From: a virus
Lineage: Duplodnaviria; Heunggongvirae; Uroviricota; Caudoviricetes
Virus record (IMG/VR): IMGVR_UViG_2925877141_000002
Length of the DNA stretch: 33,848 nucleotides
Direction: 5' to 3' (one strand)
Shown here: in pieces, positions 1,641 to 21,295 of the stretch
Layout of the letters: every line of letters begins with the position of its first letter
Numbering within the stretch: the stretch's first letter is position 1
The notes under the pieces: model-generated
The model's database searches: none
Told to the model about the DNA's origin: nothing
What the model saw: only the letters and a program-made list of their open reading frames with translations
Made by a program: the position numbers and the translations under genes

Positions 1641-3919
1641 TTAAGAATCAGTCTGACTCGGGATCAGTTTTTGCCAGATAGCTGAAACGTATTTTGCCTG
1701 GTAACGGGCGTCATCAAGTGCATTATGGCGCTCACCTTCGAATGGAATAGCCGTTCTGGCATCGAAGTCTATGGCTTTCCCCAGCTCAACGATTGTGCGT
1801 ACATCGCGATCGTTGTAGTAACGCCACGGGCAGGGGATCCCCTGCCGTTCGTATGAACGGCGCAAAATCGTGTTGTCGAAGTTGGCTCCATTTCCCCAGA
1901 CATGAACAAAAAATTCACCGGAGTTTTCGTCGATAAATTCCCGCAATTGTAACAGTGCATCATCTAACGGGATTTCATCGGTCATAATGGCAGATTGCGC
2001 TTCGCGTGATTGCTTAAGCCACCATTTAATGGTGTCCCGATCAATGACTCCGCCAGCAGTTTCCAGATCGATAGTCTTACTAAATTCCGGTCCCATATCT
2101 CCGGTTTGCGGATCGAAAAATATTGCACCTATTGAGATGATCGGGGCATCAGGATTTTTTCCCATGGTTTCAAGGTCGATCATTAGATGGTCACACGTCC
2201 TGCTGGTGGATGTGATTTCGTGATGACCGTTCACCTTAATTGGGTGATCTGCCGTCTCGCCAGTTTCATTATCGCTATTGTGATGCTGATTGCCGCCAGT
2301 GTTCTCCTTGTGTGGATGTTCAGCGCCTTCCATTTCCTCCGGATCATCTTCCTGAACTTCAACCTGATACTCTTCATCGAATGTTTCTTGGTATGTTGCG
2401 TCGCCCATCACCGCGCCACAATCAGGGCAGTTGCCGCCGCCGGTCTGACCGCAGGCGGTGCAGGCTTTTTCCACTTCCTGTTGCGCCACTGGTTCAGGCT
2501 GTTTCGTTTCTGGCTCGTTTTGTAACGCATTTGGACTGTTTTGTTCCGCTTTTTGGTAGTTCCGTTCCGATTCATGCTGGTTCTGGTTCACAGAATCGCG
2601 GGTCTGGATCCCCTTAACCCATTTCGGATCATTCGGGTCACTAATCCCTTCAACAAATTCACCACGTGATGCAGCAAGCAACTTATCGGCGTCAGGCTGG
2701 CTGATATTGGCTGCCTGCATAATTTTGTTTACTTCGTCAGCGGTAACTTTTATCGGCTCTGGTTGTTCTGAATCTTCAGCGGTATCTACATTTTGCGGTA
2801 AGCCCGTGTATGTGCCATTTTTTCGGGCAAAATATTCTTCTTTTGTGATTTCAGTGGCGCCAGCAGCCAGTGCCTTATCCAGACCAGAAAGTTTGTTTGC
2901 GCGACCGTATTTTTCTCCGTCCTTATCTGCGAAGAGGAAATAGAACGGCCCCTCACGCTCTACAGATGGTTCAGCTTCCGGCGCGGTTTCATTTTTTGGG
3001 ATATCAGATACCTCAGTTTCCACTGCATCAGTTTGTGTTTCTGATGACTGGAGAACAGCAACAGTGCCCAGGTCTGTTTCTTCATTCTCAAACACGCCCT
3101 TTGTCGTCAGGTATTCGCAGATATATTTGTTCAGTGCTACGGGATCTTTGTGAATGTCGATCGGACGCTCACGGACAAGGCCAAAAATAGTTTGGCGGTC
3201 GTAGCGAAGGGCATCAGGCTGTTTGCGTATTGATGCCGAGATACGCTTCCAGTCTTCGCGGTCGTTGTCGATAACTTCTTTTTTTGCCCAGCGATGGATG
3301 CTGCCGTCAATGTTTCCGGCATCCACATCACCAGGCCAGAGAGCGTAGGCCAGTTCGTCATCCAGTGTTTTCCATGTCTGCTTGTATTCGCGATGAATGG
3401 CAGCAATGACCGAGCTCTTTTTTCCTGTTGAATTTTCAGTGTACTGTTGATTGGCTCTGGCGCGGGCGAGATCAACAACAGACGTGTATTTTCCGGTTTC
3501 CTTGCGTTCACCTTCGCGACGTTTTTTCCAGATGCGCATCTCTGCCTGAATTTCGGGCCATTTAGCACCAGGAATACATTTATGCTTAACCCACCCAATG
3601 GCGTGCAACTTAAGCTCCGGATACATGGCGTTAACTTCTGGCATTTTCATCAACGCTTCAACGATATGTCCGTCGAATGTTGCCATGTCTTCCTGCAACA
3701 ATTCCTGTGCGCTAATAACCATATCAACGGTGATGTTTTCACATGTGTCGAACTTAACCATGACAGCGTTCTGTACTTCAGGGGCCAGCTTGTCAAAAGT
3801 GACGTTCATCGGATCGGATTCAGTCTCAACCGGGACAAAAGAAGCAGACTCCTCATCCCAGCGGTTTTCCTGCATATATTCAGCATCCCATGAATCGAGG
3901 GCAGGGCGGGGTATGCCAG
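1641..3919 (-). pseudogene. Prophage exonuclease, C-terminal 758 codons (gene split by IS2); DnaQ-like DEDDh 3'-5' exonuclease domain at C-terminus
   Basis: ORF 1641..3947 runs into the IS2 left inverted repeat, so its first 11 codons are IS/TSD-derived. C-terminal motifs IDLETMG, VWGNGANFD, HNALDDA match DEDDh exonucleases. Confidence 0.75.
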
Positions 3920-4010
3920 TAGACTGGCCCCCTGAATCTCCAGACAACCAATATCACTTAAATAAGTGATAGTCTTAATACTAGTTTTTAGACTAGTCAT
4001 TGGAGAACAG

Positions 4011-4442
4011 ATGATTGATGTCTTAGGGCCGGAGAAACGCAGACGGCGTACCACACAGGAAAAGATCGCAATTGTTCAGCAGAGCTTTGAACCGGGGATG
4101 ACGGTCTCCCTCGTTGCCCGGCAACATGGTGTAGCAGCCAGCCAGTTATTTCTCTGGCGTAAGCAATACCAGGAAGGAAGTCTTACTGCTGTCGCCGCCG
4201 GAGAACAGGTTGTTCCTGCCTCTGAACTTGCTGCCGCCATGAAGCAGATTAAAGAACTCCAGCGCCTGCTCGGCAAGAAAACGATGGAAAATGAACTCCT
4301 CAAAGAAGCCGTTGAATATGGACGGGCAAAAAAGTGGATAGCGCACGCGCCCTTATTGCCCGGGATGGGGAGTAAGCTTAGTCAGCCGTTGTCTCCGGGT
4401 GTCGCGTGCGCAGTTGCACGTCATTCTCAGACGAACCGATGA
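4011..4442 (+). CDS. insC: IS2 OrfA (InsC) variant with altered, extended C-terminus
   Basis: Starts [14 protein letters not shown] with GGAGAACAG RBS; ends ...PGMGSKLSQ... instead of canonical ...PGDGE because of the 1-bp deletion. Confidence 0.8.
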
Positions 4443-5238
4443 CTGGATGGATGGCCGCCGCAGTCGTCACACTGATGATACGGATGTGCTTCTCCGTATA
4501 CACCATGTTATCGGAGAGCTGCCCACGTATGGTTATCGTCGGGTATGGGCGCTGCTTCGCAGACAGGCAGAACTTGATGGTATGCCTGCGATCAATGCCA
4601 AACGTGTTTACCGGATCATGCGCCAGAATGCGCTGTTGCTTGAGCGAAAACCTGCTGTACCGCCATCGAAACGGGCACATACAGGCAGAGTGGCCGTGAA
4701 AGAAAGCAATCAGCGATGGTGCTCTGACGGGTTCGAGTTCTGCTGTGATAACGGAGAGAGACTGCGTGTCACGTTCGCGCTGGACTGCTGTGATCGTGAG
4801 GCACTGCACTGGGCGGTCACTACCGGCGGCTTCAACAGTGAAACAGTACAGGACGTCATGCTGGGAGCGGTGGAACGCCGCTTCGGCAACGATCTTCCGT
4901 CGTCTCCAGTGGAGTGGCTGACGGATAATGGTTCATGCTACCGGGCTAATGAAACACGCCAGTTCGCCCGGATGTTGGGACTTGAACCGAAGAACACGGC
5001 GGTGCGGAGTCCGGAGAGTAACGGAATAGCAGAGAGCTTCGTGAAAACGATAAAGCGTGACTACATCAGTATCATGCCCAAACCAGACGGGTTAACGGCA
5101 GCAAAGAACCTTGCAGAGGCGTTCGAGCATTATAACGAATGGCATCCGCATAGTGCGCTGGGTTATCGCTCGCCACGGGAATATCTGCGGCAGCGGGCTT
5201 GTAATGGGTTAAGTGATAACAGATGTCTGGAAATATAG
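4399..5238 (+). CDS. insD: IS2 OrfB (InsD) transposase body, DDE domain; no longer reachable by -1 frameshift from OrfA
   Basis: 279-aa ORF identical to the distal InsD of copy B; the frame entered by -1 slippage at the A6G site (4328-4334) hits TAA at about 4371. Confidence 0.75.
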
Positions 5239-10793: not shown

Positions 10794-11275
10794 GCGAGGT
10801 TAATTATCAGGAAGGGCATGAAACGGCGGGGCAAGCAAAAACAGTGGCATGGCGATATCGCTACGTGAAAAAAAGGCGTTACGGACTTTCAGGGGAAGTA
10901 GTGATCTGGTGACTGGAAATATGTACCGAAAAAAGAGGATTGTAACGATAGGCCGAACTATGAAATTCAGGCCTTATTCACTGCCCCGCCAGTCCCGGTT
11001 ACATCAGAAGAACTGGTTAAAGCTGTGCACTTTTATGAACAACTAAAACGCGAAAATCCACCAGCATCCGGAAACCTGATTACAGGTTCCCAGATAAGGC
11101 AATGAGCTACCTGGCGCAGAACGGGCTGATAAGTATGGGGAATGTTTTACGATGAATATTTAGACTAAAGAGTTTGTAACGCTATGTAAGTGATTTTTTC
11201 TGGTTTAGATATTTATATGTCCGGCTAAATTGAGGTGTGTTTAAATGTTATTGCACATTGATTGTAGGGGGAATA

Positions 11276-11455
11276 ATGAAAAACGCATTGCAGTTTTTGT
11301 TTGTTGCGTTCTGGTTGTTCGCATCATGTATGCCCATCATCTTCACAGCAAGGTATATGGAAAAAGTTGATGTTTTGATATTAATATTTGGATATATAAA
11401 TGCCCTTTTTTTAGGGGTGTTCATGGCGGTCATGTGCATTGAATACTGGCGGTAA
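11276..11455 (+). CDS. Small hydrophobic membrane protein
   Basis: 59 aa MKNALQFLFVAFWLFASCMPIIF...; GGGGGA RBS; A+T-rich context. Confidence 0.4.
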   Translation: MKNALQFLFVAFWLFASCMPIIFTARYMEKVDVLILIFGYINALFLGVFMAVMCIEYWR

Positions 11456-11712
11456 ATACAGCGAACTCCATTGGTTTAGTTGGATATTTACTGTGCTGGA
11501 CAAAACGGTTTGCGGGGAAATCTTAGTTAAGTAGAATGACTGCGGGTGCTTGAGGCTATCTGCCTCGGGCACGAACACCAACGGCAGGTAGAGAAAAGCC
11601 CCAGTTAACATTACGCGTCCTGCAAGACGCTTAACATTAATCTGAGGCCAATTTCATGCTAGACACATGTAGGTTAGCCTCTTACGTGCCGAAAGGCAAG
11701 GAGAAGCAGGCT

Positions 11713-11868
11713 ATGAAGCAGCAAAAGGCGATGTTAATCGCCCTGATCGTCATCTGTTTAACCGTCATAGTGACGGCACTGGTAACGAGGAAAGACCTCT
11801 GCGAGGTACGAATCCGAACCGGCCAGACGGAGGTCGCTGTCTTCACAGCTTACGAACCTGAGGAGTAA
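11713..11868 (+). CDS. hokD: Hok-family type I toxin (HokD/RelF-like)
   Basis: 51 aa MKQQKAMLIALIVICLTVIVTALVTRKDLCEVRIRTGQTEVAVFTAYEPEE; AAGGAGAAG RBS; same frame is open upstream to 11656; terminator downstream. Confidence 0.85.
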   Translation: MKQQKAMLIALIVICLTVIVTALVTRKDLCEVRIRTGQTEVAVFTAYEPEE

Positions 11869-11938
11869 GAGACCCGGCGAGGGAGAAATCCCTCGCCACC
11901 TCTGATGTGGCAGGCATCCTCAACGCACCCGCACTTAA

Positions 11939-11957
11939 CCCGCTTCGGCGGGTTTTT
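11939..11957 (+). terminator. Rho-independent terminator after hok
   Basis: CCCGC-TTCG-GCGGG followed by TTTTTGTTTTT. Confidence 0.7.
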
Positions 11958-12084
11958 GTTTTTATTTTCAACGCGTTTGAAGTTCTGGACGGTGCCGGAA
12001 TAGAATCAAAAATACTTAAGTAGCGCGCAGGGATAAGAGGGATGGTCCCTTAAAGGGGAGAGCTAATTATCCGGAAGGATTCTG

Positions 12085-15959: not shown

Positions 15960-16166
15960 CTGTATGCGATATCATCTGAAAGTGATGAGTTCCTGTATGC
16001 AGGATATTTACAATCGTAAAAACTACGCTATGATGCTCATAGTGTCAGTTTTTATAAAAATCCTGTTCACGCTAATAGACTGGCCCCCTGAATCTCCAGA
16101 CAACCAATATCACTTAAATAAGTGATAGTCTTAATACTAGTTTTTAGACTAGTCATTGGAGAACAG

Positions 16167-16532
16167 ATGATTGATGTCTTAGGGCCGGAGAAACGCAGAC
16201 GGCGTACCACACAGGAAAAGATCGCAATTGTTCAGCAGAGCTTTGAACCGGGGATGACGGTCTCCCTCGTTGCCCGGCAACATGGTGTAGCAGCCAGCCA
16301 GTTATTTCTCTGGCGTAAGCAATACCAGGAAGGAAGTCTTACTGCTGTCGCCGCCGGAGAACAGGTTGTTCCTGCCTCTGAACTTGCTGCCGCCATGAAG
16401 CAGATTAAAGAACTCCAGCGCCTGCTCGGCAAGAAAACGATGGAAAATGAACTCCTCAAAGAAGCCGTTGAATATGGACGGGCAAAAAAGTGGATAGCGC
16501 ACGCGCCCTTATTGCCCGGGGATGGGGAGTAA
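16167..16532 (+). CDS. insC: IS2 OrfA (InsC)
   Basis: 121 aa [56 protein letters not shown]... Confidence 0.85.
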
Positions 16533-17395
16533 GCTTAGTCAGCCGTTGTCTCCGGGTGTCGCGTGCGCAGTTGCACGTCATTCTCAGACGAACCGATGAC
16601 TGGATGGATGGCCGCCGCAGTCGTCACACTGATGATACGGATGTGCTTCTCCGTATACACCATGTTATCGGAGAGCTGCCCACGTATGGTTATCGTCGGG
16701 TATGGGCGCTGCTTCGCAGACAGGCAGAACTTGATGGTATGCCTGCGATCAATGCCAAACGTGTTTACCGGATCATGCGCCAGAATGCGCTGTTGCTTGA
16801 GCGAAAACCTGCTGTACCGCCATCGAAACGGGCACATACAGGCAGAGTGGCCGTGAAAGAAAGCAATCAGCGATGGTGCTCTGACGGGTTCGAGTTCTGC
16901 TGTGATAACGGAGAGAGACTGCGTGTCACGTTCGCGCTGGACTGCTGTGATCGTGAGGCACTGCACTGGGCGGTCACTACCGGCGGCTTCAACAGTGAAA
17001 CAGTACAGGACGTCATGCTGGGAGCGGTGGAACGCCGCTTCGGCAACGATCTTCCGTCGTCTCCAGTGGAGTGGCTGACGGATAATGGTTCATGCTACCG
17101 GGCTAATGAAACACGCCAGTTCGCCCGGATGTTGGGACTTGAACCGAAGAACACGGCGGTGCGGAGTCCGGAGAGTAACGGAATAGCAGAGAGCTTCGTG
17201 AAAACGATAAAGCGTGACTACATCAGTATCATGCCCAAACCAGACGGGTTAACGGCAGCAAAGAACCTTGCAGAGGCGTTCGAGCATTATAACGAATGGC
17301 ATCCGCATAGTGCGCTGGGTTATCGCTCGCCACGGGAATATCTGCGGCAGCGGGCTTGTAATGGGTTAAGTGATAACAGATGTCTGGAAATATAG
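16490..17395 (+). CDS. insD: IS2 OrfB (InsD), normally expressed as OrfAB by -1 frameshift
   Basis: 301 aa starting [22 protein letters not shown] (GTG immediately after A6G). Confidence 0.85.
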
Positions 17396-20520: not shown

Positions 20521-20883
20521 ATTAATATTAAATCGGATTATTTTTAGCGCTGAATGTGAAATTTAAATAAAAAGGACTCTTCCATGAGTCAAAATCCTTG
20601 AAATCTTAAGGGTAAGATAAAAGGTCATTAGACAGAATGACACGTTTTATTAATAAATAAAGCTATTGTTTCATTCGTGTGTTTTTCTTTACAAAAGTAA
20701 TCCTTGCTATGGTTGGTTAATCATGCGTTAATGGTGTTCTGGTTTGTTACAAAATTATCTGAAGCAGTCATTGTTATAATTTTATTATTTGTACCTCTTG
20801 AGATTTCCTTGTTGGTTTTTCTCTCTGATATTTTTTTTCGGACCATTCTGCCCAAGGGCTAACTTCTTCAAAAGGTAATAATG

Positions 20884-21096
20884 ATGTCTAACAAAATGAC
20901 TGGTTTAGTGAAATGGTTTAACCCTGAAAAAGGTTTTGGTTTCATCACGCCGAAAGATGGTAGCAAAGATGTGTTTGTCCATTTCTCAGCTATTCAGAGC
21001 AACGATTTCAAAACGTTAACTGAGAATCAGGAAGTCGAATTTGGTATTGAGAACGGACCTAAAGGCCCCGCGGCTGTTCATGTTGTGGCACTTTGA
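20884..21096 (+). CDS. cspI: CspA-family cold-shock protein (CspI/CspB-like)
   Basis: 70 aa [38 protein letters not shown]...; long A+T-rich leader 20521-20880. Confidence 0.9.
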
Positions 21097-21295
21097 GGTA
21101 GAAAATATTACAAACCATATTCACTTTAGATGCCCGTGTTGCCATGGTTCTCAGTATAGAACATCATCTTTTGATGTTTCTGACAGGAATCCTTTCGGGG
21201 CAAAATGTATCTTTTGTAAATCAATGATGATTACATTTGATAATATTTCACAATACTTAAATGTTAGCCGTCTGTCGTTAGATTTAAGAAAGTGA
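21080..21295 (+). CDS. Small zinc-ribbon protein (CPCCH...CxxC)
   Basis: About 71 aa; only available start overlaps the csp 3' end; terminator follows. Confidence 0.4.

Follow-up and report, generated by a model that had tools for sequence, protein, structure and literature searches.

The hokD Locus of a Qin-Type Prophage Has the Features of a Complete hok/mok/sok Type I Toxin-Antitoxin Cassette

The Hok Toxin Gene

The window, by which is meant the whole stretch of DNA analysed (33,848 nucleotides, IMG/VR virus record IMGVR_UViG_2925877141_000002), carries a small toxin gene, hok, surrounded by the elements collected in Table 1. Its product, MKQQKAMLIALIVICLTVIVTALVTRKDLCEVRIRTGQTEVAVFTAYEPEE, is 100% identical to K-12 HokD by tblastn and alignment, and matches the Pfam family HOK_GEF (PF01848) with E=3e-23. 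This canonical 51-residue peptide was recognized in the original prediction, along with its ribosome-binding site (GGAG), a terminator downstream (a stem followed by a T-run) and a hok frame that stays open for 19 codons upstream. All of these are confirmed, the open frame as an ORF of 70 codons. The absence of relB and relE, which precede hokD in K-12, is likewise borne out. With K-12 RelB and RelE as queries, tblastn against the whole 33.8-kb window gave no match better than E=4, and for relB, relE, ydfV and flxA, tblastn of the entire window returned chance matches only.

The HokD coding sequence has served as a known-toxic positive control in work where 42 of the 45 Hok homologs tested were toxic (bioRxiv 10.1101/2025.08.07.668861). 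The same work states that hokB is recoded from Tyr to Cys by TadA, with a similar event in hokC, hokD and hokE. The Tyr47 codon of the window's hok (TAC, 11851-11853) lies within TTACGAA (11850-11856), a UACG context that resembles the TadA A-to-I editing motif.

Identical DNA is annotated hokD in many E. coli chromosomes in RefSeq. At this locus hokD alone is listed, and mok and sok are unannotated. The lack of RefSeq features for these two is an annotation habit, not evidence against them.

Table 1. Elements of the hok locus, in window coordinates
Feature	Position	Strand	Description and basis
Predicted hok/mok mRNA promoter	11510-11537	+	-35 TTGCGG (11510-11515), 16-nt spacer, -10 TAGAAT (11532-11537)
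Predicted full-length hok mRNA, about 417 nt	11544-11960	+	Conserved 5' end GGGUGCUUGAGG to intrinsic terminator
hok mRNA leader	11544-11718	+	tac stem, Sok-target hairpin, mok and hok initiation regions; Rfam RF01794 'sok'
tac element	11544-11555	+	5' end of the mRNA; pairs with fbi
mok Shine-Dalgarno, GAGG	11644-11647	+	8 nt before the mok ATG, inside the Sok-complementary region
mok ORF, 70 codons	11656-11868	+	In frame with hok (N-terminally extended Hok); ORF list
CUAG, YUNR-type motif	11659-11662	+	Loop of the Sok-target hairpin (third hairpin, Rfam consensus alignment)
Predicted Sok antisense RNA, about 71-77 nt	11664 to about 11590	-	Aligned to annotated sokW and sokC
sok promoter	11671-11699	-	-35 TTGCCT (11699-11694), 17-nt spacer, -10 TAACCT (11676-11671), +1 at 11664
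ucb-like box, CUCUUAC	11679-11685	+	Pairs with GUAAGAG 11865-11871 (dcb-like, across the hok stop); MFE helix list
hok Shine-Dalgarno, GGAG	11700-11703	+	9 nt before the hok ATG; direct reading
hok CDS (HokD allele)	11713-11868	+	51 aa; ATG at 11713, stop ends at 11868
fbi (fold-back inhibition) element, CCUCAA-C-GCACCC	11918-11930	+	Pairs with 11544-11555; bulged C at 11924
Intrinsic terminator	11937-11964	+	GC-rich 7-bp stem (11937-11954), then T-run; terminator scan

The Prophage Setting

The window is collinear with the prophage found at the Qin site, between rspB and ydfJ, of E. coli strain EcPNK006 (RefSeq record). The order in that prophage is integrase, dicB, DicA/Cro-like regulators, O, hokD, rem, ydfU, Q, lysis genes and cspI, and Pfam and Rfam matches across the window are consistent with it. 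In this Qin-type prophage, which retains integrase, the Q antiterminator and lysis genes, the hok locus is flanked by the replication region on one side and rem/ydfU/Q on the other.

Two RNA families other than that of the hok leader were detected. The DicF small RNA is present as a full-length match to Rfam RF00039 (6092-6143, minus strand, 72.5 bits); as in K-12 Qin, it and hok are on opposite strands. The cspA-type thermoregulator family RF01766 is matched at 20726-21142 (plus strand, 109.8 bits), across the leader and coding sequence of a cold-shock gene of the prophage that the matching RefSeq record names cspI.

Directly upstream of the hok promoter is an ORF for a strongly hydrophobic product of 59-72 residues (11276-11455, plus strand, or from a GTG at 11237). 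It has no Pfam or PHROG match and no annotated feature in any listed record. Its DNA is conserved at 95-100% in the 1553 of 5426 E. coli genomes that contain this flank (see below).

Two IS3-family (IS2-like) transposase ORF pairs, each with HTH_Tnp_1 and rve domains, are also present on the plus strand (3966-5238 and 16122-17395). The first adjoins a 768-residue exonuclease ORF (1641-3947) that the matching RefSeq record gives as truncated, and therefore probably interrupts the exonuclease gene. Portal, terminase and tail genes are truncated in that record as well. Taken with the truncation of portal and tail genes, the IS2-like insertions suggest a decaying prophage.

The hok Messenger RNA

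Along the whole model (positions 1-157 of 157), the leader of the hok mRNA matches Rfam RF01794 with 107.8 bits (gathering score 59) and E=8.4e-24, and the predicted 5' end of the message is position 1 of this match. The family is named 'sok'. In controls, however, every match (at K-12 hokC and hokB, 933W, Rac442 and an R1-type IncFII plasmid locus) lay on the strand of the hok mRNA and not on that of the annotated sokC and sokB genes, so that the model describes the hok mRNA leader. The same search found no match at K-12 Qin hokD. The hok mRNA leader is present at the window's locus and missing in K-12 Qin hokD.

The -10 hexamer of the hok promoter has a conserved position in the alignment with 933W, Rac442, K-12 hokC and the R1-type plasmid locus, and TTGCGG-16-TAGAAT is a plausible hok promoter on that basis. 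A generic sigma-70 scan placed both this and the sok promoter below threshold, each with one hexamer matching at 3 of 6 positions, which for hok is the -35. For this reason both were placed by alignment to homologues that have been annotated or experimentally mutated.

The predicted full-length mRNA folds in silico with a minimum free energy (MFE) of -172.7 kcal/mol (z=-7.4 against shuffled sequences). The two ends of the molecule are joined in this fold by helices 11544-11549:11925-11930 and 11550-11555:11918-11923, that is, by 12 base pairs of tac and fbi with one bulge, at pair probabilities of 0.97-1.0. The fold sequesters the start of mok (11656-11660) as well as the start region of hok (11708-11722). 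When the RNA is truncated in silico before fbi, the 5' end refolds as a local hairpin, which is what the R1 model would lead one to expect following 3' processing. The MFE structure also pairs CUCUUAC with GUAAGAG, and these may be equivalent to the ucb and dcb boxes of R1.

An RNAduplex search for tac-fbi pairing recovered the site in five copies of the hokD/hokW type (the window, 933W, Rac442, PPompW and a P1-like copy). In the last four it lies 47-49 nt past the stop codon. No convincing canonical fbi was found by this search in the R1-type copy or in K-12 hokC, which has IS186 immediately 3'.

The mok Frame

The mok ORF matches PHROG 251 ('MokW-like host killing') with E=7.7e-33. The original prediction considered a frame open upstream of hok, in place of an overlapping mok, to be unusual. 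In a five-way alignment, the ATG at 11656 shares its column with the annotated starts of mokW (933W) and mokC (K-12). Both of these are annotated as in-frame extensions with the hok stop in common, so that an in-frame extension is the normal mok for this hok subgroup.

Even among close relatives the frame is not constant. It is accepted that the act of translating mok matters and not the Mok product, and in canonical R1 mok is out of frame with hok. Among the copies examined here, mok is in frame in the window, 933W, PPompW and the R1-type IncFII plasmid copy. It is in the +1 frame in the Rac-442/2 copy (L008 738-944) and the P1-like copy (L011 about 515-720), in each of which it encodes a 68-residue product unrelated to Hok. 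These +1 loci are 87-92% identical to the window's. Indels of one base between the ATGs of mok and hok account for the shift, and the mok frame thus flips in and out among close relatives, which fits the view that it is mok translation that counts.

The Sok Antisense RNA and Its Promoter

The 5' ends of annotated sokW and sokC both fall at window position 11664; their 3' ends correspond to 11594 and 11588, respectively. The predicted window Sok has a single-stranded 5' tail, a long hairpin and then UUUUCUCU, a U-rich tail. Folded as 11666-11590, it gives -30.6 kcal/mol (z=-5.3). Six nucleotides separate the sok -10 from the start, and the -35, spacer and -10 are base-identical to those of the sokW promoter in 933W.

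The homologous promoter has been studied experimentally. HokW is toxic and is neutralised by sokW expressed from its own promoter; in a 'pro-less' sokW mutant toxicity is restored, and sokW supplied in trans gives partial rescue (Takada et al. 2021, PMC8621323). The mutagenic primer used there, YO-421 (CCGGCTC-GCCTCTTACGTGCCGAAAG), replaces TAGGTTA (PMC8621323), which is the window's sok -10 read on the hok strand. The primer flanks are also identical in the window.

The Sok target in the mRNA is a hairpin with a YUNR-type motif, CUAG, in its loop. Motifs of this type reportedly matter for rapid Sok binding, a finding that is attributed to Franch et al. in 1999.

The 5' tail of Sok and its target (11643-11664) differ from those of sokW at 6 of the first 22 Sok nucleotides, with the promoter and hairpin almost unchanged. 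Cross-recognition between the window's Sok and hokW/sokW may for this reason be reduced. The number of matching places per genome has a median of 2 and reaches 9, and the divergence of the 5' tail would fit avoidance of cross-talk between co-resident copies.

These elements bear on the original prediction of a stand-alone hok, in which the sequence did not show whether a functional Sok is encoded upstream. A hok gene whose antitoxin and mok control were lost or never present, with no relBE control either, would be in keeping with the absence of relB and relE from the window, with the RefSeq annotation of hokD only, and with a generic promoter scan that finds no antisense promoter. It is nevertheless extremely improbable. 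The RF01794 leader match is full-length, the mok ATG, Sok start and Sok promoter align with annotated mokW/sokW and mokC/sokC, and the sok -10 has the same sequence as that of sokW, which was validated by experiment. An intact sok promoter and mok frame are recovered by alignment to known hok/sok loci, which makes this an ordinary hok/sok, and the stand-alone reading was rejected. In the extent originally given (11656-11960), the first position is the mok ATG. The functional locus starts earlier by about 150 nt, its promoter being at about 11510-11537 and the 5' end of the mRNA at about 11544.

A Hok peptide, a mok with its own Shine-Dalgarno sequence, an antisense Sok gene with its promoter, a structured leader and tac/fbi pairing, the features that define hok/mok/sok at the sequence level, are thus all found. 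Every element is present, in position and conserved, and the fold-back pairing is observed in silico. The region from about 11510 to 11960 is almost certainly an entire type I toxin-antitoxin cassette of the hok/mok/sok family, one that represents the hokD locus of the Qin prophage without interruption and is closely related to hokW/mokW/sokW.

Related hok Systems

The nearest characterised relative is hokW/mokW/sokW of the Stx2 phage 933W (AF125520), or Sakai prophage Sp5, with DNA 92.5% identical over 94% of 11500-11965. The 933W record annotates mokW (213 nt, 70 codons, with the hokW stop), hokW and a 71-nt sokW antisense RNA. In both loci a mok of 70 codons is in frame with a hok of 51 codons, and the Sok start column, the sok promoter and the tac and fbi sequences are shared. 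They differ in the last seven Hok residues (TAYEPEE in the window, VDYESEK in HokW) and in the terminator. The 933W locus lies near the genome end, whereas that of the window has the replication region and rem/ydfU/Q as its neighbours. Homology to 933W is confined to about 11502 to about 11940, and the neighbourhoods differ; the unit from promoter to fbi therefore behaves as a portable cassette.

K-12 hokC/mokC/sokC (gef) is similar in that mokC is an in-frame extension with the hokC stop, the mok ATG and Sok 5' end occupy the same alignment columns as in the window, and the 5' end GGGUGCUUGAGGC is shared. The sokC hairpin, however, is about 18 nt shorter, and the sokC -10 region is ACTCT... 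as opposed to TAACCT. IS186 lies downstream, and the alignment of hokC with the other loci stops about 35 nt past the stop codon.

The prototype hok/mok/sok of plasmid R1 has the same order of elements, although it is plasmid-borne, unlike the window's locus. The R1-type copy belongs to the same Rfam family (RF01794, 87.2 bits), and its sok promoter, TTGCGC-17-TATCCT, is in the same register. Similarity between the window's Hok and R1 Hok is at the family level only; an identity of 44% has been reported for HokW and Hok (PMC8621323).

The relBE-Linked hokD of K-12

In K-12 the Qin prophage occupies the same chromosomal site (rspB..ydfJ), and its relB-relE-hokD operon (relBEF) is near-identical to the window from 11699 on, with one mismatch over the hok Shine-Dalgarno sequence, HokD coding sequence, fbi, terminator and rem. 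The relE gene of K-12 ends 71 nt before hokD. The relBEF arrangement, in which relB and relE lie immediately upstream of hokD and are co-transcribed with it, is not found in the window, where no relB or relE similarity was detected.

The junction in K-12 (11698/11699) coincides exactly with the first base of the -35 hexamer of sok. It precedes the hok ATG by 14 nt and keeps the hok Shine-Dalgarno sequence only. Since identity to K-12 begins inside the sok -35, relBE has replaced the hok promoter, tac, the mok start, Sok and most of the sok promoter. The leaderless, relBE-linked hokD of K-12 is a derived, rearranged form. Related statements exist in the literature. The passage of PMC6379469 that cites Ramisetty & Santhosh 2016 has relBE integration cutting an ancestral hokD ORF of about 70 codons to 51. 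PMC7232551, in a passage citing Pedersen & Gerdes 1999, attributes the inactivation of K-12 hok loci to IS elements, point mutations or rearrangement, and mentions an apparently intact hokD in other strains.

The two forms were counted in complete E. coli genomes (n=5426) as matches with at least 80% query coverage. A query of leader and hok (11440-11990) was found in 2964 of the 5426, many of the matches being 100% identical and annotated 'hokD'. The K-12 relE-hokD junction was found in 1164 of 5426, and the specific upstream flank (11230-11545) in 1553. Absence of relBE next to hokD is the commoner state in E. coli, and the K-12 arrangement is in the minority.

Proposed Mechanism and Physiological Role

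By homology to R1 hok/sok and hokW/sokW, a mode of action can be proposed; for the window's strain, transcription, processing, Sok action and toxicity would all follow by analogy. The weak hok promoter would give a stable mRNA of about 417 nt in which the 3' fbi pairs with the 5' tac, leaving the full-length molecule untranslatable and unable to bind Sok. Slow 3' trimming would remove fbi, and the 5' end would then refold to expose the mok start (Shine-Dalgarno sequence and ATG) and the Sok-target hairpin. Unstable Sok, made from the minus-strand TTGCCT-17-TAACCT promoter, would pair across the mok initiation region, blocking mok and hence coupled hok translation and marking the duplex for RNase III. 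Should Sok synthesis stop, whether by loss of the element or on prophage induction as has been demonstrated for sokW, Mok and Hok would be translated, and the 51-residue Hok would insert in the inner membrane and kill or lyse the cell. With mok in frame, its translation would yield an extended Hok of 70 residues, the situation of mokC/hokC and mokW/hokW.

Uncertainty is left mainly on the physiological side, with other chromosomal hok/sok loci reported to be inactive in post-segregational killing (PSK) assays and hokW-sokW active. In the summary given in bioRxiv 10.1101/2025.08.07.668861 of Pedersen & Gerdes 1999, chromosomal hokA, hokB and hokC show no post-segregational killing and no rifampicin response, so an intact sequence is no guarantee of activity. 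The window's locus could in the same way be structurally intact but silent, neither stabilising the prophage nor killing, and the weak consensus matches of the -10 TAACCT and -35 TTGCGG would agree with this. Such silence seems unlikely when every regulatory element is conserved, when many unrelated isolates carry the locus with 100% identity, and when hokW-sokW, with an identical sok promoter and 92.5% overall identity, works and responds to induction (PMC8621323).

What is known of hokW-sokW also raises the possibility that the cassette serves the lytic cycle and not maintenance, loss of Sok on induction letting Hok speed lysis and phage release as in Sp5. After mitomycin C, sokW RNA disappears and HokW accumulates in dependence on RecA, and phage yield falls by half in the absence of the hokW-sokW locus, which is a working toxin-antitoxin pair responsive to prophage induction (PMC8621323). 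In favour of a lytic role, too, the window's prophage has kept integrase, Q and lysis genes. A role of this kind is conceivable but on the doubtful side: the locus is positioned differently from that in 933W, and the prophage looks degraded, with its two IS2-like insertions and the truncated portal, terminase and tail genes of the matching record, so that productive induction is doubtful.

More tentatively, the Qin-borne hokD/mokD/sokD might, like hokW-sokW, act to accelerate lysis on induction or else to retain the prophage, and the relBE insertion of K-12 a natural 'antitoxin swap'. If so, the swap would have moved Hok from RNA-antisense control to that of a type II toxin-antitoxin operon. 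The occurrence of in-frame and +1 mok among copies each 87-95% identical to the window's locus would then mean that only the translation of mok matters, not Mok.

Significance

The complete cassette is what this locus ordinarily looks like, a widespread form that has been described before, and K-12 is the exception. The textbook relBE-hokD of K-12 is a derived minority state, while the common hokD locus of E. coli is a full hok/mok/sok cassette. Beyond correct annotation the significance of this is small; RefSeq under-annotates the locus, listing hokD and missing both mok and the Sok RNA. Studies of hokD, of relBE deletions or of Qin biology in strains other than K-12 should expect an antisense-regulated toxin at this locus.
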